Under the pieces are notes generated by a model, which was not told the DNA's origin, searched no databases, and saw only the letters and a list, made by a program, of their open reading frames with translations. 64,000 bases of DNA, taken from positions 1-64,000 of the IMG/VR virus record IMGVR_UViG_3300025853_000035. One strand, written 5' to 3'. Below are positions 3,027 through 63,978 of this stretch, in pieces. The stretch comes from a virus (Duplodnaviria; Heunggongvirae; Uroviricota; Caudoviricetes). The position numbers and the translations under genes are program-made. Position 1 is the first letter of the stretch; each line of letters opens with the position of its first letter.

Positions 3027-3829
3027 GGCCCGTGGGAGGCTCAGGGAGCGCCACAGGGCGTCAGGAGGCCCCAGAAGGCACCGGGAGGACCTGTTGAGGC
3101 TCCACGGCGCTTAGAACGGCTCTGAGGGGCCTCCAGACGGGCACTGTAAAGCCAGAATGGCGGTCGAAGCACCAGAAAACGGGTCAAATCCGCCATTTTA
3201 CCCTCTGAGGGGTCAATTTCCCGGCCTTATGTCGCCAAATGTCCGTTTTTCGACATTACACCGACAGTTTCACTTGACATTGGTGGTGGAGCCGACCCGG
3301 CCGGGGTCCGATTTGACGAACCATCTTTTACAACATTAGGCTGTAAAATCACAAAATCTTTTTTCGACTTTGCCCCTTCAAACCCGCAGAAAACTGCCAT
3401 TTTCCCTTCTAATATTCCAATCTACAGATTGTGTGACTTTAGTCGGTGCAACATTACCGGCGCGGCGCGGCCTCAAGGGGACGATCCGGGACGCCGGACA
3501 TGGGTCGTCGATCGCTTCCCGAGGCTTCTCAGGGCGATTTGTGGAGGCGGCTGGAGGATGTGATGGAGGTGGGAGGGGGGCGTGCTGCCCGGAAATGGTG
3601 GAGATATGGGTGGAAGGAGTGATGGAAAATCGAAATCCAACACCCCGGCCTATGTCCTGACGGGGAGGGTCCCAGAGGTCTGGAGAAAAGGGGTCCCCGG
3701 CCCTTGCTCTGAGGGGGAGGGTCCCCTAGTCTGTGTCGTGGGGACCGTCGGCCGGATGTCGTTCGTCGGGGTCCCCCTGATCGGCGGGACGGTGCGGATG
3801 CAGGCTGGCGGACGAGAGCATGGCGGGCC

Positions 3830-5870: not shown

Positions 5871-6228
5871 CGCCCATCATCTTGAGGCATTCATTGGCGG
5901 CCTTGTATTCGCCGGCCGCCTGAGCGAACTTCACATTGGAAGCCATCATGTCCATGACACGTTGGAAGGTCCAAGCAGCCACTTCGACAGCGCTTTCGGG
6001 ACTGCCTGCGGCTTGCTTTCGGAGAATGTCGAACTCCACGCTTTTGCGCTCGATCTCCGCACGCAATTCTTCCACCCGTTGTTTCACGAGCGGCTGGCTG
6101 GCGAGGGTGCTGGCGTTCGAGCTTGATGGCTCGTATCCAGCGTTGGTGTAGGCATCTAGCTGCGTGCAGCCTTCGGCGAGGAACTTGGCGAAAAGCTCCT
6201 GCTTCTTGTTCAGGTAGGTTTGGGCCAT
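5689..6228 (-). CDS. terS: terminase small subunit
   Basis: MAQTYLNKKQELFAKFLAEGCTQLDAYTNAGYEPSSSNASTLASQ resembles P27-family terminase small subunits. The start sits at the stop of the RuvC-like gene. Confidence 0.65.
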   Translation of the reverse strand: MAQTYLNKKQELFAKFLAEGCTQLDAYTNAGYEPSSSNASTLASQPLVKQRVEELRAEIERKSVEFDILRKQAAGSPESAVEVAAWTFQRVMDMMASNVKFAQAAGEYKAANECLKMMGDALKMFEKAQADATSGKQAGPQNTLALIGQVTQVLADASGGSSPQADNPLAPRLPSTSDA

Positions 6229-39762: not shown

Positions 39763-39792
39763 AACTCGATCTGCAAACAGGAAGATTTGTCC

Positions 39793-41148
39793 ATGAAGAA
39801 ACAGCTTACGGCGGCCTTCGTCAAGGGCCTCAAGCCCGGTCCGAAGAAACAGGTGATCACTGATTCTGTGGCGGCCAACCTCCGCCTGATCGTCCACCCG
39901 ACCGGGCGAAAGATTTGGGCATGGCAAGGCAAGGTGAACGGTGAGCCGAAGACGGTGACGCTGGGTCAGTGGTTGGAGACCGGAGGCATGGACCTGTCCG
40001 CCGCCCGCGAGCGAGCGACCGAGATCAACACCGCCAAGGTCGAGGGAAGAGCGGTGAGCTTCCTAACGCCCAGCGAGGAGTCATCCGAGCCGGCGATCGA
40101 CCCGCGCGCCTCCCTCACCTGCGACTGGATGTTCGATCAATATATGGCGGCCGAGGGCGAGACGAGGAAGACGGCCAAGGAGAAGCGGACCACCTACAAC
40201 CGGGAGATCAAACCGACGCTGGGTGAGCGGCAGATCGACACCATCACCTACGACGATCTGGCGGCGATCGTGCAGAAGAAGTTTGCGGAAGGGAAGGGGC
40301 CGGCGTCGAACCGGCTCAAGGCGCTCATCGCCCGCTGGTGGAAGTGGGGCGTCTCGCGCGGCCGGGCCGTGACCGGTCTGACCGTCAACCCGGCGATCGA
40401 TCTGGTGAGCCTCGCCGACGAGAACAAGCGTCGTCGCTACCTCACGAATTACGAGATCGGGGTGTTCTTCAAAGGAACCTATTTGGCTCGTGACACCTTC
40501 GCTGAGATGATGACCGTCATCCTCTACACCGGCCTGCGACGGAGCGAGGCGGCCGGTCTGACATGGGACGAGGTCCGCTTCCACGACAACACGATTCTGA
40601 TCAGCGGTGAGCGGATCAAGAACGGGTTGGACCTGCTGCTGTGGATGCCGGACACGGTGGTCGCGATCCTGCGCCAACGCAAGCGCCTCACCGGCAATTA
40701 CAAATACGTCTGGCCGGCCCCGTTCTCGTGGAGGCAGGGCGAGACGGTCGATGAAGACGAGGACACGTCGAAGGAGCTAATCAGCTTCACGAAGCCCATG
40801 AACGCGCTCAACGAGACCTGCCAGAAGCTGGCGGCGAAGGAGCGGAAGACCATGGAGCGGTTCACCGTCCACGATCTGCGTCGCACGCTGGCGACGGGTA
40901 TGCGGGGATTGAGGGATGCCGAGGACAAGCCTCTCATCCTGTCGGACATCGTCGAGCGGGTCATCAACCACATCATCGGCGGCGTCCGGGGCAACTACGA
41001 TCACCACGACTATTTCGCGGAGAAGAAGGCGGCGCTCCGCATTTGGGCGGAGCACCTTGATCCGATCAGGCTGACCGCTCACGCAGCCATTGAGAAAACT
41101 CACTCCGCAGCCAGCGGGTCGCCTGCACGTTCACTGGCTGAGGCATGA
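39793..41148 (+). CDS. int: tyrosine integrase (P4-type)
   Basis: N-terminal arm-binding domain (LTAAFVKGLKPGPKK...ANLRLIVHPTGRKIWAWQGKVNG, DUF4102-like) and a catalytic region with HDLRRTLATGM and a C-terminal Tyr. Adjacent to a tRNA fragment and arm repeats. Confidence 0.9.
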   Translation: MKKQLTAAFVKGLKPGPKKQVITDSVAANLRLIVHPTGRKIWAWQGKVNGEPKTVTLGQWLETGGMDLSAARERATEINTAKVEGRAVSFLTPSEESSEPAIDPRASLTCDWMFDQYMAAEGETRKTAKEKRTTYNREIKPTLGERQIDTITYDDLAAIVQKKFAEGKGPASNRLKALIARWWKWGVSRGRAVTGLTVNPAIDLVSLADENKRRRYLTNYEIGVFFKGTYLARDTFAEMMTVILYTGLRRSEAAGLTWDEVRFHDNTILISGERIKNGLDLLLWMPDTVVAILRQRKRLTGNYKYVWPAPFSWRQGETVDEDEDTSKELISFTKPMNALNETCQKLAAKERKTMERFTVHDLRRTLATGMRGLRDAEDKPLILSDIVERVINHIIGGVRGNYDHHDYFAEKKAALRIWAEHLDPIRLTAHAAIEKTHSAASGSPARSLAEA

Positions 41149-42417: not shown

Positions 42418-42753
42418 ATGATGGGGGACTATGCTCACGAGCCGCCGGACGATGAGACTGATCCGGTCTATCTCCTGCTCAAGGCAGGGTATAGGCCGGA
42501 GCAGTTCGAGGCCGCCTGCAAGCGCCTCCGTCCGATGGCACTCGACGATTATCTGCGTGAGCCGTTCTCGGACCTCGAAAAGATGATCTTGCGGTTGGCG
42601 GTGGAGAACACATCGTGGATCACCACCTACCGCACCCACGCCCCAACCCGTGACTCGCCCATGCTGATCCGTGAAGCATTGACCGCGTTGCGAACCCTCG
42701 CCGCCAAGCTCGAAGACTTCGGCATCGAAGTCAACTACATCCCCAACGATTGA
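42418..42753 (+). CDS. hypothetical protein (starts MMGDYAHEPP)
   Basis: Internal ATG of ORF 42133..42753. Confidence 0.4.
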   Translation: MMGDYAHEPPDDETDPVYLLLKAGYRPEQFEAACKRLRPMALDDYLREPFSDLEKMILRLAVENTSWITTYRTHAPTRDSPMLIREALTALRTLAAKLEDFGIEVNYIPND

Positions 42754-42764
42754 AAAGGAGCCAC

Positions 42765-43865
42765 ATGTTCGACATCTGTGTATTCGCTGGCCGTATGCGT
42801 CCGCCGACGGCCGCTCATCTGGCCAACATCCGCGCCGGCCTCGCCGCTTCCCAATATGTCTTCGTCATCATCGGCTCGACCGGTGAAGCCCCGCACTTCA
42901 AGAACCCCTTCACGTTCGACGAAGTCCAGACCATGATCCGTGGCTCGCTGTCGGCGGCCGAGAATGATCGCGTCTTCGTCCACGGCGTCCGCGACCGCGA
43001 CAATGACCTTGCGTGGGTCCGCGACGTGCAGAAGATCGTCCACGAACAGGCGACCGCGCTGTCGATCCCCGGCGAGCCGCGTATCGCTCTGGTAGGCTGC
43101 AACAAGGACGGCTCGTCCTATTACCTCAAGCTCTTCCGCCAGTGGGGAAGCATCGGTGTCGAGCCGATCCTGAACGACGGCGAATCGATGTCGGCGACCG
43201 CCATGCGTATGGCGCTCTACGAAGCCGAGGACCCCGGCCGCGTCCTCAAGACGTGGAAGGACCTGTTCGGCGCTTCCTATCTCCCGCACGGCACCTTCTG
43301 GTTCCTGCGCCAGTGGGTGAACACCGAGCACTTCCAGCAGATGCGGGCCGAGGCGCTGTTCATGCGGGACGAACTCAAGAAGTTCCAGCCGAACCCCTAC
43401 ACCGGCCAGCCGCAGCAGCACAATTGCGCCGACTTCTATCTACAGCACGGCGGCGCTGTCCTGCTGGTCAAGCGCGATCGGATGCCCGGCGAAGGGCTGT
43501 GGGCGGTGCCCGGCGGGCACAAGCACGCCTACCAGACGTTCCGCGACGCAGCGCTCGCTGAGCTTGGTCAGGAAACCAGCATCTTCGACCTGAACGAAGC
43601 CATCACGCCCGACGTGATCAACAGCTACATCCGGGGCGACAAGCTGCTCGACAATCCGTGGCGGTCGAACCGCGAAGTGACCGTCTCGGTAGCTTACGGC
43701 GCGCTGCTGCCCGGCAGCTTCACCCGGCCGCTGATCGAAGGCGCTGACGACGCCCGCGAAGCCCGCTGGTGGAACATCGACGAGATCACCCGTGACATGA
43801 TGTTCGAAGACCACTTCAACATCATCGAGGATTTCTCGAACCGCTTCCGCGATCTGACGATCTAA
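42765..43865 (+). CDS. nadM: bifunctional NMN adenylyltransferase / Nudix ADP-ribose pyrophosphatase (NadM-Nudix)
   Basis: N-terminus ICVFAGRMRPPTAAHLANI matches the archaeal-type NMNAT motif GRFQPxH/TxGH. C-terminal Nudix box GGHKHAYQTFRDAALAELGQETS. SD AAGGAG before the ATG. Confidence 0.7.
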   Translation: MFDICVFAGRMRPPTAAHLANIRAGLAASQYVFVIIGSTGEAPHFKNPFTFDEVQTMIRGSLSAAENDRVFVHGVRDRDNDLAWVRDVQKIVHEQATALSIPGEPRIALVGCNKDGSSYYLKLFRQWGSIGVEPILNDGESMSATAMRMALYEAEDPGRVLKTWKDLFGASYLPHGTFWFLRQWVNTEHFQQMRAEALFMRDELKKFQPNPYTGQPQQHNCADFYLQHGGAVLLVKRDRMPGEGLWAVPGGHKHAYQTFRDAALAELGQETSIFDLNEAITPDVINSYIRGDKLLDNPWRSNREVTVSVAYGALLPGSFTRPLIEGADDAREARWWNIDEITRDMMFEDHFNIIEDFSNRFRDLTI

Positions 43866-43877
43866 TCAGGAGACCCC

Positions 43878-45344
43878 ATGAGCTATATCACGACCATCGG
43901 GGAACTGCTGAACCAGCCGATCCTCAACAGCGACACCTACAAGAACAGCCACTGGACGTTCGAGCACCCGCAGTTCACTTCGAGCTACGGCTACATCGAA
44001 GCCCGTAAGGGTGGCGAGTTCAGCGAGGTCATGTTCTTCGGCCTGCAATACCTGCTGCGCTATTACCTGACCCAGCGCGTCACCGACTCGGTGATCGCCC
44101 ACGCCCGCCGCTTCCTCCCGCTGCACGGCGTGCCGTTCAACGAAGAAATGTGGACGACCATCCGCGACAAGCACGATGGCCGGTGGCCGGTGCGGATCAA
44201 GGCGCTTCCAGAGGGCGTCCTCGTCCCGCAGGGCTGTGTCCTTGTCACGGTGGAATCGCTCGACGAGGAATGCGCCGGTGTCGCCGCGTTCGTCGAAACC
44301 CTGCTGCTTCGCGGCGTCTGGCTCCCCACCACGATCGCCACCCGGTCGATGCGCTGGTGGCGTCTGGTCGATCGCTACCTCACCCAGAGCGGCACGCCGG
44401 AGACGGCGGAGTTCAAGGTGGTGGACTTCTCGGCGCGCGGCGTCCGGTCGTCCGAGGACGCAGGCATCTCCGGCATGGCCCATCTCCTGAACTTTCAGGT
44501 GACCGACAATCTGCTTGGCATCCTGTTCGGCCAGAACGCCTACACGACCGAAACCATGCTGGGATATTCGATCCCGGCGACCGAGCACTCGGTCACCACG
44601 TCGTGGGGCAAGGAAAACGAGCAGGCGTTCTTCGAGCACATTCTCGAAGTCCATGGCCAGACCGTGAACCCGCTGGGCGGCCGGTCGCCGGTGTCGGTGG
44701 TGATCGACACCTACGATCAGGACAACGCCGTCCGCATGTGGCTGACGCCGGCCGAGAAGGGCGGTTGCGGCCTCCGCGAGAAGCTGGAAGCGTCGAACAT
44801 GTGCGTCGTGCTGCGGCCGGACTCGGGTGATCCGATCATCAACGTCGTCCACCTGCTCGACCTGATCGGAAGCCTGACGGGCTGGACGGTCAACGAGAAG
44901 GGCTTCCGCGTCCTCCCGGATTTCGTTCGCGTCATTCAGGGCGACGGCATCCACGAAGAATCGCTGCGCCGCATCCTCCAGCGTGTGGTCTACCACACTT
45001 GGTCGATCGACAACCTGACCTTCGGTTCGGGCGGTGGTCTGATGATGCACGACGTGGAGCGCGACACCCACCGCTTCGCCATGAAGACCTCGGAAGTGGT
45101 CATCGGCGGTATCACCAGCGCCGTCCGCAAGGAGGTCAAGACCGATCCGTCCAAGGCATCCAAGGCCGGGCGCTTCGCAGTGGTGATGGAGAACGACGTG
45201 CTGATCACCATCCCGGAAGACGAACTCAACGGTCGTCTCAACTATCTGCGGACGGTCTACGAGGACGGCGAACTGGTCGCCCCTGAGACGTTCGATCAGG
45301 TCCGGGAGCGCGCTCGCCAGTGGCGCGTCATCGGGCACGGCTAA
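43878..45344 (+). CDS. nadV: nicotinamide phosphoribosyltransferase (NadV/NAMPT)
   Basis: N-terminus LNQPILNSDTYKNSHW matches the NAMPT DT/SYKxxH signature. 488 aa. Confidence 0.8.
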   Translation: MSYITTIGELLNQPILNSDTYKNSHWTFEHPQFTSSYGYIEARKGGEFSEVMFFGLQYLLRYYLTQRVTDSVIAHARRFLPLHGVPFNEEMWTTIRDKHDGRWPVRIKALPEGVLVPQGCVLVTVESLDEECAGVAAFVETLLLRGVWLPTTIATRSMRWWRLVDRYLTQSGTPETAEFKVVDFSARGVRSSEDAGISGMAHLLNFQVTDNLLGILFGQNAYTTETMLGYSIPATEHSVTTSWGKENEQAFFEHILEVHGQTVNPLGGRSPVSVVIDTYDQDNAVRMWLTPAEKGGCGLREKLEASNMCVVLRPDSGDPIINVVHLLDLIGSLTGWTVNEKGFRVLPDFVRVIQGDGIHEESLRRILQRVVYHTWSIDNLTFGSGGGLMMHDVERDTHRFAMKTSEVVIGGITSAVRKEVKTDPSKASKAGRFAVVMENDVLITIPEDELNGRLNYLRTVYEDGELVAPETFDQVRERARQWRVIGHG

Positions 45345-56920: not shown

Positions 56921-57367
56921 TTATTTGGTGAGGTTGAGATCGTAGGTGGTCACCGGGCCACCTGTGTTCTTGTCGTGCAGCGAGGCTGCTTCGACGGCCT
57001 CTTCGGCGGTAGCCCCTGCGGCCAGCGCACCGAGGGCCAGCATCGTCCCGGAGCCGATTGCGGTGTAATCGGCATAGATCGGGACGAGGTGTCCATCATC
57101 GAATTCATAGGCGCGGCCGGAAACACGATCGACGAGCAGCGCGGAGAATTCGGAGGTGTTGTTGAGAAGGTCGGCCGGAACTTCGTCGCTATGACAACCG
57201 TCCTTGACCCACTTTTCGAGAATGCGCCGGTAACAGACAGCACCAGCCAGCGCGACGAGGTAATTGCCGCATTCGGCGATCTTGTCCCGGTGGCCATTTG
57301 TGTAGGTGTTATAGGCGATTAGGGTATCGGCAGCGAGGACGCCGTCGCGATAGCAGATGGTAGTGAT
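56921..57367 (-). CDS. HslV/proteasome-like Ntn-hydrolase protease (Thr1 directly after an unusual ATC initiator)
   Basis: TTICYRDGVLAADTL...AIGSGTMLALGALAAG aligns with HslV (TTIVSVRRNG...AIGSGGPYAQAAARAL). The listed 189-aa ORF contains a family promoter (TTGACA-N17-TATCTC) and SD GGAGACGGACC inside its N-terminal extension. The codon right after the SD is ATC, followed by ThrThr. Confidence 0.55.
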   Translation of the reverse strand: MTTICYRDGVLAADTLIAYNTYTNGHRDKIAECGNYLVALAGAVCYRRILEKWVKDGCHSDEVPADLLNNTSEFSALLVDRVSGRAYEFDDGHLVPIYADYTAIGSGTMLALGALAAGATAEEAVEAASLHDKNTGGPVTTYDLNLTK

Positions 57368-57394
57368 GGTCCGTCTCCGCCGGGTGAATGGGTG

Positions 57395-57430
57395 CGGAGA
57401 GATAATCGAAACTGTCGTTGGTGTCAAGTT
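57395..57430 (-). promoter_or_regulatory. promoter-family copy driving the HslV-like gene
   Basis: Reverse complement: AACTTGACACCAACGACAGTTTCGATTATCTC ... GGCGGAGACGGACCATC. Confidence 0.5.
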
Positions 57431-57491
57431 AGAATTGCGGTGAGTAATAACTCGGACGCCAACGGACGATGGCGGAAAGGGTGAGGACAAA

Positions 57492-57530
57492 GAAAAGGCC
57501 CGGCTCTCTTGCGAGGACCGGGCCTACCAC
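57492..57530 (-). terminator. rho-independent terminator for a minus-strand transcript
   Basis: Minus strand reads GGCCCGGTCCTCGCAAGAGAGCCGGGCCTTTTCTTTG. Confidence 0.6.
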
Positions 57531-57699
57531 CGGATTTCACCGTGTTTGGAGACAGACAATCTCCGGCGGATAACTCCTGATAGGGGGTTGCACCCTACCG
57601 GTCAAGGCACCTTTCGCTGCTGCCCGAACGAGGATAGCGGTCTATCGACTTCCGCCCTCGCCAGCACGTCTACCACTTACCCGAGGTTTATCACCGTCA

Positions 57700-58183
57700 T
57701 GCCGGCTTCTAGCCTCGGACGAGGGAGTCGAACCCTCATTTGCCCAGCTTGCCCTACCTTGGGCCTTCTCTTCCTTCATCCGTCGCGAACGGTAGGTTCG
57801 GACAGCAGCGAAAAGTGTCTTGCTCCCAGATAGGATGATTCTTCCTATCTGTCAAACACAGTTCAGAAGGAGGCCCAACACAGTCGCGCGGGGGAGTGCG
57901 ACTAGCGGTCAGGGGTGGGGTCGTGCTGGACCCCCATCTGAACTGTGTGGCCCGTTCTGTTGCTCGGTGGGCCAGCCCGCACCTTAGGAGTTGATCCCCA
58001 AGGAATTCACCGGACACAGTTTAGGCCGAAGCCCTCACATTCGTCCGGCTGAGATCACGCCGCGAGGCGCATCTCGACAACTTCGTTGTCGTTGACAGTT
58101 ACGTCGGTGATCCGCATGACGGGCGGTGTCTAAACGGGTCGCGTCCTTCTCTCAGCCTTGCCGCTCGATCCTAATTCACCCCC
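57700..58183 (-). ncRNA. ssrA: tmRNA-like (ssrA-like) gene: tRNA-like 5' end, tag reading frame, downstream T-arm-like element (3' end unresolved)
   Basis: Minus strand from 58183 reads GGGGGUGAAUUAGGAUCGAGCGG, which fits the tmRNA 5' consensus GGGGnUGAuUcuGGAUuCGAcGGG. About 95 nt downstream is an in-frame tag (V)NDNEVVEMRLAA followed by a TGA stop (plus-strand coordinates about 58046-58085), ending in the degron-like LAA. A GAGGGTTCGACTCCCTC T-arm motif sits at 57721-57737. No clean 3' acceptor plus CCA was found. Confidence 0.45.
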
Positions 58184-58997
58184 ATCAACTGCACTGACAA
58201 CCAACACCTCCATCCGCTAAGACTTTGGCGCTAGGGTCGCTAAACCCTAACCGGCGTTCCGACTGTCAGCATTACGCTTGGGCGCGCTGTCAGTGCAGAT
58301 GGTGGAGGTGGCGGGCTCTGCCCCCGCGTCACGGCTCAACCTCGATCGTCCGAATAACGACCATATTCTTTGTGGCCCAGCGCCCCGCGCTGAGAAGCGC
58401 GGTCGATAACGGCACGATGGGCCAACCTCGTTGCGATCAGATCGGTGAGGGATTCGAACCCTCGGCTGGACGGTGCGCCATAATTCTGACTACGGAGCCG
58501 TTGCCTCCGAATTCCATCCAGTCTTGCATCGATCACCCTTAAACCACTCGGGCAACCGACCTGATCAAACCTCCCCTGCACACTCGGAATAGCGGGCAGA
58601 CATTGCGGCGCTGAAAGCGCGGGAGGAAATTCTTGCCATCACTGGCAATGTGAAACCTCAAAGCTCAGCAGGCTCACTACTTCCTGCCTATAGCCGCGTC
58701 AGTGTAACGCCACACCTCTCCACGAGGAGCAAAAGGTCTCGCATTGCGAGTGATACCCGGCGGAGTAACAACAAGGAGACAAATCCGCTCCGCCGGGCAT
58801 CCGATCTGGAACTTCCCCGCATGGGCTGCTCCGTCTCGATGAACACATCTCTAAGCGATTCGTTACAGAACGTCAAGCGAAAATGTCGCTGCATTCTTTT
58901 GGCGCATCACTTTTTAGAGAGAGGTGACAAAAATCTGATTTCCTGCCAAAGAGCGGGGCGCGGCCGAGGAGGTCGAGCAATCAAAGTTAGGTGCTAA

Positions 58998-62757: not shown

Positions 62758-62833
62758 TGGCACGGGTGGTGGGACTCGAACCCACGTTGCACGGTTTTGG
62801 AGACCGGCCGAATAGCCGCTATCTTACACCCAT
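62758..62833 (-). tRNA. tRNA-Trp (CCA)
   Basis: Manual cloverleaf: acceptor ATGGGTG/CACCCGT, T-arm GTGGGTTCGAGTCCCAC, anticodon loop CTCCAAA, encoded CCA. Confidence 0.6.
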
Positions 62834-62842
62834 GTGAAACGC

Positions 62843-62926
62843 TGGAGCCGCCCACAGGGATCGAACCTGCGTCCTTTCGGAACCTCCGGGTTGCAACCGG
62901 GTGCCTTACCTCTCGGCCAAGGCGGC
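62843..62926 (-). tRNA. class II (Ser-like body) tRNA with apparent GCA anticodon
   Basis: Acceptor GCCGCCT/GGGCGGC, Ser-like D-arm GGCCGAGAGGTAAGGC, 14-nt variable arm, T-arm GCAGGTTCGATCCCTGT, CCA. The anticodon region CCGGTTGCAACCGG is palindromic; the most plausible loop TTGCAAC gives GCA. Confidence 0.5.
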
Positions 62927-62933
62927 TCATATC

Positions 62934-63020
62934 TGGAGGAGAGTGAGGGGATCGAACCCTCCCAGCCTTTCGGCTACCTTCGCTTAGCAAGCGAGTGCGT
63001 TACCACTCCGCCAACTCTCC
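62934..63020 (-). tRNA. tRNA-Ser (GCT)
   Basis: Acceptor GGAGAGT/ACTCTCC, D-arm GGCGGAGTGGTAACGC, loop TTGCTAA, long variable arm, T-arm GGGTTCGATCCCC, CCA. Confidence 0.65.
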
Positions 63021-63027
63021 ATTAAAC

Positions 63028-63100
63028 TGGATGCCCGGCCACGGATCGAACGTGGGTTTCATGCTTCAAAGGCACGGGTCTTACCATTAGACGAACGGGC
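63028..63100 (-). tRNA. tRNA-Gln (TTG)
   Basis: Anticodon stem CGTGC/GCATG, loop CTTTGAA, T-arm CCACGTTCGATCCGTGG, CCA. Confidence 0.55.
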
Positions 63101-63102
63101 AT

Positions 63103-63180
63103 TGGTTCTCCGCCGAGGACTCGAACCTCTATCTTTCCGCATTCAGAGTGCGGCGGCCGGACCTGCCAGCTAAGCGGAGA
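63103..63180 (-). tRNA. tRNA-Gln (CTG)
   Basis: Acceptor TCTCCGC/GCGGAGA, anticodon stem CCGCA/TGCGG, loop CTCTGAA, T-loop GGTTCGAGTCC, CCA. Confidence 0.55.
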
Positions 63181-63198
63181 ACAGGATCAGGACTTAGG

Positions 63199-63272
63199 GG
63201 TGACCTGTGGGTTTCGAACCCACCATCTCCGGCACCACAAGCCGGCGCATCAACCTACTCTGCCTAGGCCAC
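63199..63272 (-). tRNA. tRNA-His (GTG), no encoded G-1
   Basis: Acceptor GTGGCCT/AGGTCAC, anticodon stem CCGGC/GCCGG, loop TTGTGGT, T-arm GTGGGTTCGAAACCCAC. Position -1 is U and no CCA is encoded. Confidence 0.6.
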
Positions 63273-63369
63273 ACCTAAATCCTGAACTGCATCCCATCGT
63301 CCTCATGTGACCAGATATGACCGATAGGGCGGTCATATTGCCCATATATGGACGATAGAACGGTCAAAC

Positions 63370-63446
63370 TGGAGCCGACGGTGGGATTTCAACCCACGAT
63401 CTGCCGTTTACGAGACGGCTGCTTTGAGGCTCTAAGCTACGTCGGC
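63370..63446 (-). tRNA. tRNA-Thr (CGT)
   Basis: Acceptor GCCGACG/CGTCGGC, anticodon stem GCCGT/ACGGC, loop CTCGTAA, T-arm GTGGGTTGAAATCCCAC, CCA. Confidence 0.65.
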
Positions 63447-63453
63447 ATAACTC

Positions 63454-63540
63454 TGGTGCGGTTCCCCGGACTTGAACCGGGACGGCCTTTCGGCCACTGA
63501 GGTTTGAATCCAGCGCGTCTACCAATTCCGCCAGAACCGC
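63454..63540 (-). tRNA. tRNA-Leu (CAA)
   Basis: Leu-type D-arm GGCGGAATTGGTAGACGC, loop TTCAAAC, long variable arm, T-arm CCCGGTTCAAGTCCGGG, CCA. Confidence 0.65.
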
Positions 63541-63548
63541 ATTGATCT

Positions 63549-63634
63549 TGGTGCCCTAGGCAGGACTTGAACCTGCACGACCTTTCGGCCCACGGCCTCT
63601 CATGCCGCTATGTCTACCGTTCCATCACAAGGGC
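63549..63634 (-). tRNA. tRNA-Leu (GAG)
   Basis: Leu-type D-arm GATGGAACGGTAGAC, anticodon stem GCGGC/GCCGT, loop ATGAGAG, long variable arm, T-arm GCAGGTTCAAGTCCTGC, CCA. Confidence 0.6.
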
Positions 63635-63646
63635 GTGATTGTAATC

Positions 63647-63730
63647 TGGTGCGCCTCCCCGGACTTGAACCGGGACGAGTTTCCCCCACGGCTTCTGAGG
63701 CCGCTACGTCTGCCATTCCGCCAGAGGCGC
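63647..63730 (-). tRNA. tRNA-Leu (CAG)
   Basis: Acceptor GCGCCTC/GAGGCGC, D-arm GGCGGAATGGCAGACG, loop CTCAGAA, T-arm CCCGGTTCAAGTCCGGG, CCA. Confidence 0.65.
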
Positions 63731-63736
63731 GTTAAC

Positions 63737-63823
63737 TGGTGGGTAGGTGAGGTATCGATCCTCCCCCTCTTGCGAGGCGCGGTGTTACAGACCGCCTGCC
63801 GGAGCCACCGGCTTTACCTACCC
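63737..63823 (-). tRNA. tRNA-Tyr (GTA), class II
   Basis: Acceptor GGGTAGG/CCTACCC, anticodon stem GCGGT/ACCGC, loop CTGTAAC, long variable arm, unusual T-loop ATCGATA, CCA. Confidence 0.55.
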
Positions 63824-63891
63824 GTGAAAATTGAAAACAAAAAAGCGCCAAGAGCCAGTGGCTCATGACGCTGTGAAAAATCGCGATGGGG

Positions 63892-63978
63892 TGGAGGAGG
63901 GTAGAGGAATCGAACCCCTAGGTCTCTCAACACTAGCCCGGTTTTCGAGACCGGTTTGCACCCTGTGCGCTACCCTCC
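63892..63978 (-). tRNA. tRNA-Ser (CGA), class II
   Basis: Acceptor GGAGGGT/ACCCTCC, anticodon stem CCGGT/ACCGG, loop CTCGAAA, long variable arm, T-arm AGGGGTTCGATTCCTCT, CCA. Confidence 0.55.

Follow-up and report, generated by a model that had tools for sequence, protein, structure and literature searches.

What kind of transfer-messenger RNA (tmRNA) gene lies in a noncoding block of a tailed-phage genome, and how much of that block belongs to it? The block is located on the minus strand, between a parB-like gene and the gene of an HslV-family peptidase, in a 64-kb stretch (positions 1 to 64,000 of IMG/VR record IMGVR_UViG_3300025853_000035) that we refer to as the window and to which all coordinates relate. 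The initial annotation had read 58183-57492 as a phage tmRNA with an NDN...LAA tag frame, a one-piece-like copy that might be unusually long, interrupted by an intron, or reduced to a 5' fragment. The sequence features that it quoted, GGGGGUGAAUUAGGAUCGAGCGG at 58183, the tag frame, CACAGUUCAGA...UCUGAACUGUG, GGGTTCGACTCCC, and a terminator, are all found on the minus strand. We read this strand directly from 57200 to 58900. ARAGORN was applied to the whole window, as was Rfam at curated thresholds; Rfam was applied again to 57300-58900 at E ≤ 5. The block very probably consists of a functional permuted tmRNA gene (58362-57946) followed by a hairpin, a tRNA-mimic RNA preceded by a promoter-like motif, and a small RNA. 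Around the tmRNA, about 1.4 kb lacks a convincing open reading frame (ORF). This stretch contains three or more additional structured RNAs that are conserved but unannotated in the related phage records inspected.

A complete permuted tmRNA gene

Two Rfam models match the minus strand above their gathering scores: tmRNA_permuted (RF04321) at 58362-58055 (79.6 bits, gathering score 47, E = 1.3e-13, model positions 1-213) and alpha_tmRNA (RF01849) at 58400-57946 (68.8 bits, gathering score 50, E = 1.1e-16, model positions 1-355). The two matches overlap, and both span the full length of their models. A phage tmRNA with an NDN...LAA tag frame is thus real. The window carries a complete circularly permuted two-piece gene of the alpha type, and not a one-piece gene, an interrupted gene, or a fragment.

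The acceptor piece (58362-58300) starts with the RF04321 match. It supplies the 5' strand of the helix formed with the coding piece and holds the T-arm GCGGG-GGCAGAG-CCCGC (58327-58311), CACCUCC as the 3' strand of the acceptor stem (58310-58304), the discriminator A (A73, 58303), and an encoded CCA (58302-58300). An intervening segment of 116 nt (58299-58184), which appears as an insert between the pieces in both Rfam models and is predicted to be excised from the precursor, separates it from the coding piece (58183-57946), whose extent is given by the full-length RF01849 match (1-355). The acceptor 5' strand GGGGGUG (58183-58177) begins 116 nt downstream of the encoded CCA, in permuted order, and pairs with CACCUCC at seven of seven positions, including G3.U70. 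The alanine identity elements are therefore present: all seven acceptor pairs, the G.U at position 3, and A73. The coding piece also holds a D-loop analogue, AAUUAGGAUCGA, and the tag frame GUC AAC GAC AAC GAA GUU GUC GAG AUG CGC CUC GCG GCG UGA (58096-58055), which encodes (V)NDNEVVEMRLAA-stop; the RF04321 match terminates precisely on the stop codon (58055). This type of tmRNA lacks the GCA codon, and the resume codon is GUC or the next AAC in the same frame.

Position 58183, annotated initially as the 5' end of the tmRNA, begins the coding piece; the gene starts about 180-220 nt upstream and its model ends at 57946. The clean 3' acceptor strand with CCA that had been reported missing is found upstream, at 58310-58300. 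This is the only exact copy of CACCTCCACCA in the 64-kb window, which explains why it was missed downstream.

By blastn against phage records, the window matches Sphingobium phage Lacusarx at about 82% identity over the matched parts, which include the annotated ssrA gene. Weaker matches are to Erythrobacter phages XM05 and vB_EliS-L02. The RNA block belongs to a Lacusarx-like phage of sphingomonads. Relatives were gathered with the HslV-family protein as anchor (11 IMG/VR loci and 80 metagenome loci). Among them, the metagenome contig L015 is essentially identical to the window, and L016 shows 90% HslV identity. A tmRNA profile (nhmmer) detected the homologous gene in 20 loci, including L015 and L016, and our feature parser could read 19 of these; in the remaining one, L012, the 5' acceptor strand was not located. 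The acceptor stem has seven pairs in all 19 parsed loci and occurs in five covarying variants (GGGGGUG/CACCUCC, GGGGCCG/CGGCUCC, GGGGGCG/CGCCUCC, GGGGACG/CGUCUCC, and GGGGAUG/CAUCUCC), always with G.U at position 3 and an encoded A73-CCA. The T-stem covaries likewise (GCGGG/CCCGC, CGGGG/CCCCG, CCGAG/CUCGG, and ACGGG/CCCGU). The tag frame is open in 19 of 19, with the form xNDN...(R/A)LAA, a length of 13-17 codons, and a start ANDN or VNDN. Three loci (L004, L019, and L020) read ..CUGUC/GCA AAC GAC AAC and so possess the GCA that the window type lacks, mirroring UAGUC/GCA AAC GAC of Escherichia coli; for vB_EliS-L02, ARAGORN assumes a GUC resume codon. The intervening segment ranges from 65 to 116 nt in the family, that of the window being the longest. 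This substitution pattern is one of purifying selection.

The position of the gene is also conserved. Its neighbors are a tRNA array on one side and the HslV-family gene on the other in XM05, vB_EliS-L02, ten of the 11 IMG/VR contigs (directly upstream of the peptidase gene in those ten), and six metagenome contigs, whereas the order in Lacusarx is tRNA array, tmRNA, large primase-like gene, then tadA and rtcB. In XM05 and vB_EliS-L02 the tRNAs are followed by an unannotated gap, the HslV-family peptidase gene, and the primase gene. Rfam places a permuted tmRNA in each of these three phages at 80-100 bits. ARAGORN calls it in two of them only, Lacusarx (tag ANDNDVVTAEVRLAA) and vB_EliS-L02 (tag VNDNDVVVARDEVRLAA), as well as in L012 and L013, and misses it in the window, L002, L004-L011, and L016-L020, XM05 included, where Rfam scores are 54-100 bits. 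Surveys based on ARAGORN will therefore undercount phage tmRNAs.

These data bear on two other explanations. That the stretch from 58183 to 57492 is one long or interrupted one-piece-like tmRNA, with the downstream hairpins as pseudoknots, GGGTTCGACTCCC as T-arm, and a 3' acceptor that is missing or displaced by an intron, is almost certainly wrong. It would account for the succession of 5' strand, tag frame, T-arm-like hairpin, and terminator on one strand, and for the strong structure of the whole stretch (for the 461-nt region, a fold of -221.6 kcal/mol, z = -8.2 against shuffles). However, the upstream acceptor piece with its CCA pairs perfectly with GGGGGUG, and no copy of the 3' strand lies downstream. 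Rfam at E ≤ 5 reported neither RF00023 nor a group I intron or other intron family in 57300-58900 (one lower-scoring match of the same clan was suppressed). Furthermore, the GGGTTCGACTCCC hairpin has a covarying acceptor-like hairpin of its own inside a covarying 20-bp helix, two enriched promoter motifs interrupt the stretch, and its elements are rearranged in XM05. It is also very improbable that the tmRNA is a decaying, nonfunctional piece of a host ssrA gene, acquired for instance when a phage attached at ssrA excised imprecisely. The ssrA gene is a frequent target of phage integrases, and prophage ssrA fragments are documented (PMC9004378); the window encodes a tyrosine integrase, and ARAGORN fails on its tmRNA copy. 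Against decay, both pieces are complete, and the gene keeps its place between tRNA array and HslV-family gene in phages whose HslV proteins are only 54-67% identical. The compensatory changes in the acceptor stem and T-arm, the invariant G3.U70 and CCA, and tags that vary in length while keeping frame and LAA argue in the same direction.

Several points nevertheless weigh against the proposed composition of the block. ARAGORN calls no tmRNA in the window; we treat this as a false negative, in view of the Rfam scores and because the program itself calls four of the homologs. Either GUC or AAC could be the resume codon; the choice alters neither the reading frame nor the C-terminal degradation signal. 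A tblastn search of the window gave no SmpB gene (best E 0.096), so that the function of this tmRNA would depend on a host factor; phage tmRNAs generally use the SmpB of their host. The ARAGORN call in Lacusarx extends 21 nt into the homolog of the hairpin that follows the gene, and a generic sigma-70 scan of the window calls none of the promoter-like motifs described below. Expression, processing, and tagging of the tmRNA are predictions.

By analogy with known two-piece tmRNAs, we infer the following pathway. A single precursor would be transcribed across both pieces. RNase P would cut 5' of GGGGGUG (58183) and the 3' end would be trimmed to the CCA (58300), releasing the 116-nt segment, while the 7-bp acceptor stem and the adjoining helix would hold the two pieces together. 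G3.U70 and A73 would direct charging by alanyl-tRNA synthetase, and with SmpB supplied by the host the tmRNA would enter stalled ribosomes. Translation would resume at GUC or AAC (58096/58093) and append Ala-(V)NDNEVVEMRLAA before UGA, which would mark the tagged product for proteolysis and free the ribosome. In at least 19 loci the tmRNA adjoins the gene of the HslV-family protease, an arrangement suggestive of a possible coupling between tagging and proteolysis in these phages.

The window gene shares with the alphaproteobacterial two-piece tmRNA (RF01849/RF04321, Caulobacter type; Keiler, Shapiro & Williams 2000, as cited in PMC9004378) the order acceptor piece, intervening segment, coding piece, as well as the 7-bp acceptor stem, G3.U70, A73, encoded CCA, and xNDN...LAA tag. 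It differs in being phage-borne, in its T-loop GGCAGAG and 116-nt intervening segment, in the missing GCA resume codon, so that the tag starts with V or N, in a conserved extra hairpin after its 3' end, and in being overlooked by ARAGORN. Lacusarx ssrA (KY629563, LAV_00111) and its counterparts in XM05 and vB_EliS-L02 are homologous genes in a homologous position (tRNA array, tmRNA, primase-like gene, RtcB) with related tags (ANDNDVVTAEVRLAA, VNDNDVVETPMALAA, and VNDNDVVVARDEVRLAA, respectively). In Lacusarx, no HslV-family gene lies in the annotated stretch between tmRNA and primase-like gene, and the searches revealed no tRNA-mimic RNA and no small RNA in it. The tmRNA gene lacks an annotation in the GenBank records of XM05 and vB_EliS-L02. 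Other phage tmRNAs, such as those of cluster C mycobacteriophages (Bxz1, for example) and Bacillus phage G, are likewise complete genes of large phages with many tRNAs; we take the mycobacteriophage tmRNAs to be of the standard one-piece form. Two-piece phage tmRNAs are known from phage Melnitz and pelagimyophages.

The publication on Lacusarx mentions a single tmRNA (PMC5648845). Mycobacteriophage tmRNAs, including those of Bxz1 and ET08, and that of Bacillus phage G were listed earlier (PMC4131195), and the tmRNA database holds 79 unique phage sequences and 11,946 permuted ones (PMC11915505). A survey published in 2022 reported 402 phage genomes and 133 unique tmRNAs, of which 53 are two-piece, mostly aquatic; in Melnitz, the two-piece ssrA is followed by a glutamine riboswitch (PMC9004378), whereas the structured RNA found 3' of the gene in the window is a tRNA mimic. 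Given these counts and the annotated Lacusarx ssrA, a two-piece tmRNA on an alphaproteobacterial phage is expected and not, as had been supposed, unusual. The window gene adds an example to the known set and corrects the idea of an aberrant one-piece form in such a phage.

Two peculiarities were noticed at tmRNA genes of relatives. In Lacusarx, an ORF of the LAGLIDADG homing endonuclease type (LAV_00110, L001 6205-6750; Pfam LAGLIDADG_3, E = 9e-6) is inserted at the 5' edge of the tmRNA gene and overlaps it; neither the window nor any other relative carries this ORF. L016 (~1720-1850) and L012 (~3590-3720) carry downstream of the tmRNA an extra element of about 130 nt that ends in ...GAGCAACAGAACCGGGGCACC and resembles a second tmRNA 3'-terminal domain, an element that the window lacks.

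A tRNA mimic downstream of the tmRNA

The GGGTTCGACTCCC motif, which the initial annotation took for the T-arm of the tmRNA, belongs to another RNA that has its own promoter-like motif. This tRNA mimic of about 210 nt, that we designated TLR (57818-57608), was delimited by nhmmer, RNAalifold, and hand-curated covariation. It has nhmmer matches in 14 loci, representing eight distinct sequences, and no match to any Rfam family at E ≤ 5. Its position is always 0-120 nt downstream of the tmRNA, whose 3' end it adjoins in most relatives; in the window and in L016, a hairpin and a promoter motif lie in between.

According to the hand-curated parse, a closing helix P1 (57815-57796/57629-57610) encloses a hairpin H1 (57793-57779), a T-arm GAGGG-UUCGACU-CCCUC (GGGTTCGACTCCC, 57737-57721), an acceptor-like hairpin AS (57718-57681), a D-loop-like sequence AGUGGUAGA (57677-57669), and a degenerate second T-arm-like hairpin (57655-57637). 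Covariation was tabulated on a hand alignment of eight sequences from about four lineages: canonical pairs occupy 153 of 160 cells in P1, with both sides changed at 9 of 20 positions; 31 of 32 in H1 (2 of 4 positions); 40 of 40 in the T-arm (3 of 5); 41 of 48 in the AS stem (5 of 6); and 32 of 32 in the second T-arm (3 of 4). The AS stem differs in sequence and loop length in each lineage and is followed by AGUGGUAGA or AUGGUGGGA. The succession of T-arm, acceptor-like hairpin, and D-loop within a helix of 20-22 bp is that of a circularly permuted tRNA. This parse, checked against every sequence, replaces the MAFFT/RNAalifold and single-sequence minimum free energy (MFE) folds, which were set aside because they wrongly paired the palindromic T-loops with each other; RNAalifold did recover the closing helix, with about 25 pairs and many double changes.

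We rejected a tandem array of degenerate tRNA pseudogenes, the T-arm coming from one and the D-arm from the next, because the hairpin that separates the two arms covaries and the entire unit sits inside a helix that covaries as well. It is also unlikely that the RNA serves as a mascRNA-like signal for 3'-end processing of the tmRNA, since the acceptor-like stem is internal and permuted, so that RNase P would not cut the junction. Cleavage of the 20-22 bp closing helix by RNase III is possible. Among the matches listed, scans of viral and genome collections for the signature pattern gave no members beyond the contigs already analyzed, all further matches being due to chance according to the nhmmer filter.

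The architecture recalls that of YrlA (RF02553; Chen et al. 2014, PMC4201824). YrlA RNAs are defined by a 5' GNCGAAN0-1G motif, by stem-loops V, T, AS, and D, and by a location at most 4 kb from Ro60 on the same strand (PMC4201824). In the parse of the eight sequences, the modules follow in the order (V), T, acceptor-like, D between paired ends, and the likeness extends to the terminal helix and the canonical T-loop. The window mimic also has a 7-bp acceptor-like stem, like RNase P-cleaved Mycobacterium smegmatis YrlA, and RtcB in its neighborhood. In contrast to YrlA, it has no Ro60 nearby or in related complete phage genomes and no match to RF02553, its 5' motif is inexact in the window, it possesses the extra H1 hairpin and a second T-arm, and its ~210 nt are about twice the length of the RF02553 model (114 positions). 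The mimic is thus built like YrlA but is not filed as a member. Bxz1 has a tmRNA, a Ro60 gene, and a YrlA-like match upstream of Ro60, whereas no Ro60 accompanies the YrlA-like RNA of the window. The tmRNA-carrying phage ET08 is among those whose YrlA was aligned in PMC4201824.

RF02553 has a gathering score of 69. The stretch upstream of Bxz1 Ro60, used as positive control, scores 32.5 bits (E = 3.4e-5), and the L012 module directly after the tmRNA scores 38.1 bits (E = 6.5e-5), both below that threshold. L012 3440-3600 apparently contains two tandem modules of T-arm, acceptor-like hairpin, and D-arm after the tmRNA, of which this is the first. GNCGAAN0-1G occurs at one aligned site in five of the eight members, is absent from the window (which has GAUGAAGG), L019, and L005, and is found in about 4.5% of shuffles; the Bxz1 control stretch has no exact copy.

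It is conceivable, though less likely than not, that the mimic represents a new class of phage tRNA mimics, with Y-RNA (YrlA) architecture but no phage Ro60, coupled to the tmRNA, that might act as a decoy or adaptor for a host factor within an RNA-only module. Several results count against reading the 57818-57608 RNA as a YrlA-like tRNA mimic. RF02553 does not match the window mimic at E ≤ 5 and matches none of seven of the eight relatives tested at E ≤ 1. Pfam detects no TROVE domain in window ORFs of at least 330 aa. A tblastn search with Bxz1 Ro60 found nothing in the window or in loci L001-L094, nor in the complete genomes of XM05, Lacusarx, and vB_EliS-L02. The covariation table is a hand alignment of few lineages, and no D-stem is present in the window mimic, whose second T-arm is degenerate. 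The same Ro60 query matched 357 phage records, none of them from Sphingobium or Erythrobacter phages; XM05, complete and mimic-bearing, is not among them and is therefore taken to be without Ro60.

The mimic could instead be a true ortholog of YrlA whose partner is a Ro60/Rsr protein of the host, which it would tether or gate during infection, as modeled on the Salmonella rsr-yrlBA-rtcBA system and on mycobacteriophages that carry Ro60, YrlA, and tmRNA. We consider this rather unlikely. The V-T-AS-D order within a terminal helix, the subthreshold L012 match that exceeds the Bxz1 control, the aligned GNCGAAN0-1G site in five of eight members, and RtcB nearby on the same strand all fit a Y RNA, as does the 5' strand UGUCCGAAC of the window, which is close to the GGUCCGA contacted by vertebrate Ro60 (PMC4201824). 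Yet published YrlAs lie within 4 kb of Ro60, for which the window, L001-L094, and complete XM05 gave no match. The YrlA model is silent on the window and seven of eight relatives, the window has GAUGAAGG in place of a motif that shuffling also produces and that the Bxz1 control does not carry exactly, and the additional T-arm and H1 hairpin are undescribed for YrlA. Also improbable, in our judgment, is derivation from the adjacent permuted tmRNA by loss of the tag, the product binding SmpB or another partner and modulating trans-translation. Its topology is that of the tRNA-like domain of a permuted tmRNA closed by a long helix, it invariably lies 0-120 nt downstream of the tmRNA, and in the window both RNAs have a single-stranded D-loop analogue and no D-stem. 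An RNA of mycobacteriophage DS6A that consists of the tRNA-like domain only and has been linked to tmRNA inhibition (cited in PMC4131195, PMC11915505) offers a precedent. But the acceptor-like stem is closed by a variable loop and lacks G3.U70 and CCA, the T-loop is the canonical UUCGAcU and not the GGCAGAG of the tmRNA, the L004-L007 type has a normal D-stem, and no similarity to the adjacent tmRNA is detectable beyond generic tRNA motifs.

The mimic is the more novel part of the block and may be new, its putative function being deduced from architecture and neighborhood. Most likely it would bind a protein that recognizes the tRNA elbow, within a translation-maintenance module made of tRNAs, tmRNA, and RtcB. 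Under the idea of a new mimic class, candidate targets would be SmpB, an anticodon or acceptor nuclease of a defense system, a modification enzyme, or host Rsr, and the mimic, tRNA array, tmRNA, and RtcB together would sustain translation during infection. The authors of the YrlA study left open the role of its tRNA-like module (PMC4201824). If the mimic does work without Ro60, these phages would provide a simple system in which to study the function of that module in Y RNAs.

Hairpin, promoter-like motifs, and small RNAs

The ~450 nt from 57946 to 57490 lie outside the tmRNA model, and no credible ORF was found in them. For the RNAs downstream of the tmRNA, Rfam returned nothing credible in 57300-58900 at E ≤ 5; apart from the toxic small RNA match described below, it gave only matches of T-loops to plastid motifs. 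The hairpins there that had been interpreted as tmRNA pseudoknots include a separately conserved one: MFE folds show a long imperfect hairpin, CACAGUUCAGA...UCUGAACUGUG with the inner pairing GGGGGUCCAGCAC/GUGUUGGGCCUCC, at 57948-57856, which contains the GGGGUCCAGCAC motif noted previously. It displays compensatory changes in L016 and Lacusarx; XM05 and members of the L004-L011 lineage lack it. The hairpin may extend the coding piece at its 3' end, or else act in processing or termination.

Promoter-like motifs on the minus strand divide the block into units. TTGACA-N17-TATCTG (57855-57827), of the ..GGAAGAATCATCCTA subclass, precedes the tRNA mimic; TTGACC-N17-TATCAG (57605-57577) precedes the small RNA; and TTGACA-N17-TATCTC (57427-57399), upstream of the HslV-family gene, marks the end of the noncoding block. 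The L016 copy of the mimic is preceded by the same motif. For the shorter pattern TTGAC-N18-TA, whose minus-strand sites around the block are 58876-58852, 57855-57831, 57605-57581, and 57427-57403, the window has 28 copies where 2.07 are expected, a 13-fold excess (largest number in a shuffle, 5); TTGAC-N18-TATC occurs four times against 0.26 expected, three of the four being in the RNA block. Recurrent subclasses and enrichment led us to mark these motifs as putative phage promoters. Sites of the TTGAC-N18-TA type are spread over the phage (e.g., 15965, 30919, 41937, 57855, and 58876), and their subclasses, TTGACCGAATC... and ...GGAAGAATCATCCTA, may correspond to different temporal classes. 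In XM05 and the L004-L011 type, the same RNA elements are present in a different arrangement. Together with the end of the tmRNA model at 57946 and the motif before each element, this rearrangement speaks for the mimic and the small RNA being units separate from the tmRNA.

The small RNA, about 85 nt long (57576-57487), was defined by nhmmer, alignment, and a consensus fold in which a hairpin GGAGA-UUGUCUG-UCUCC is nested within CCGCCGG...CCGGUGG. It is detected in about 14 loci (nhmmer), with strong sequence conservation and little covariation, and its GGAGA...GUCUGUCUCC hairpin is invariant. The strong same-strand terminator of the initial annotation exists, as a GGCCCGG..CCGGGCC hairpin followed by the U-run UUUUCUUUG (57524-57487), but it ends this small RNA and is outside the tmRNA model. 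A subthreshold Rfam match (23 bits) to a betaproteobacterial toxic small RNA covers only UGUCUCC and the terminator.

A possible second small RNA (~58730-58845, minus strand) lies between a promoter-like TTGAC-N18-TA motif (58876-58852) and a terminator-like hairpin (58750-58738). Its design, CCGGCGGAG...UUUGUCUCC...CUCCGCCGG, resembles that of the small RNA at 57576-57487, and the overlapping ORFs of 49 and 68 aa look spurious. If the proposal of an RNA-only module is correct, the small RNA and possibly this paralog (58845-58730) would be further parts of it.

Directly upstream of the tmRNA, and probably cotranscribed with it, is a tRNA-like gene (58439-58562, minus strand) with a good 7-bp acceptor stem, a D-arm, and a T-arm but no anticodon arm, which is replaced by a 13-nt single strand and then a long branched extra arm. 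Neither ARAGORN nor the Rfam tRNA model calls it, and tRNA-Sec scores 19 bits (E = 1.2). The gene is conserved in Lacusarx (L001 ~6040-6180), where the long arm is changed.

Neighboring genes

The neighbors reported for the locus, an HslV-family peptidase, RtcB, and a tRNA array, are present, although ARAGORN counts 11 tRNAs (62758-63978, minus strand) and not 12. RtcB (Pfam, 410 bits) is encoded on the same strand about 4 kb from the mimic, and a 1,052-aa protein is primase-like (DUF5906 and PHROG DNA primase families). Phage tRNA arrays and RtcB-type ligases have been interpreted as repairing, or compensating for, cleaved tRNAs (PMC7824862); the tmRNA is in keeping with a module that maintains translation in this way, as perhaps is the mimic. 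The window further encodes a large terminase, a tyrosine integrase, NAMPT, and a NUDIX protein. The integrase, which has an Arm DNA-binding domain, is located next to the NUDIX and NAMPT (NAD salvage) genes (39787-41148 and 42750-45344, plus strand), and the phage may be temperate or carry an integrative module.

The HslV-family peptidase (coding sequence 57367-56921, minus strand) was identified by PHROG 1040 (E = 5e-33) and by a weak PDB profile match to a solved beta-proteobacterial proteasome homologue; Pfam does not recognize the protein. A GGAGAC Shine-Dalgarno sequence is in place. The start position (57365-57367, minus strand) reads ATC in the window and L015, ATG in seven relatives, and CTG in L016. 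As ATC is also found in L015, an independent metagenome contig, this points to a non-canonical start codon in the lineage rather than a sequencing error.

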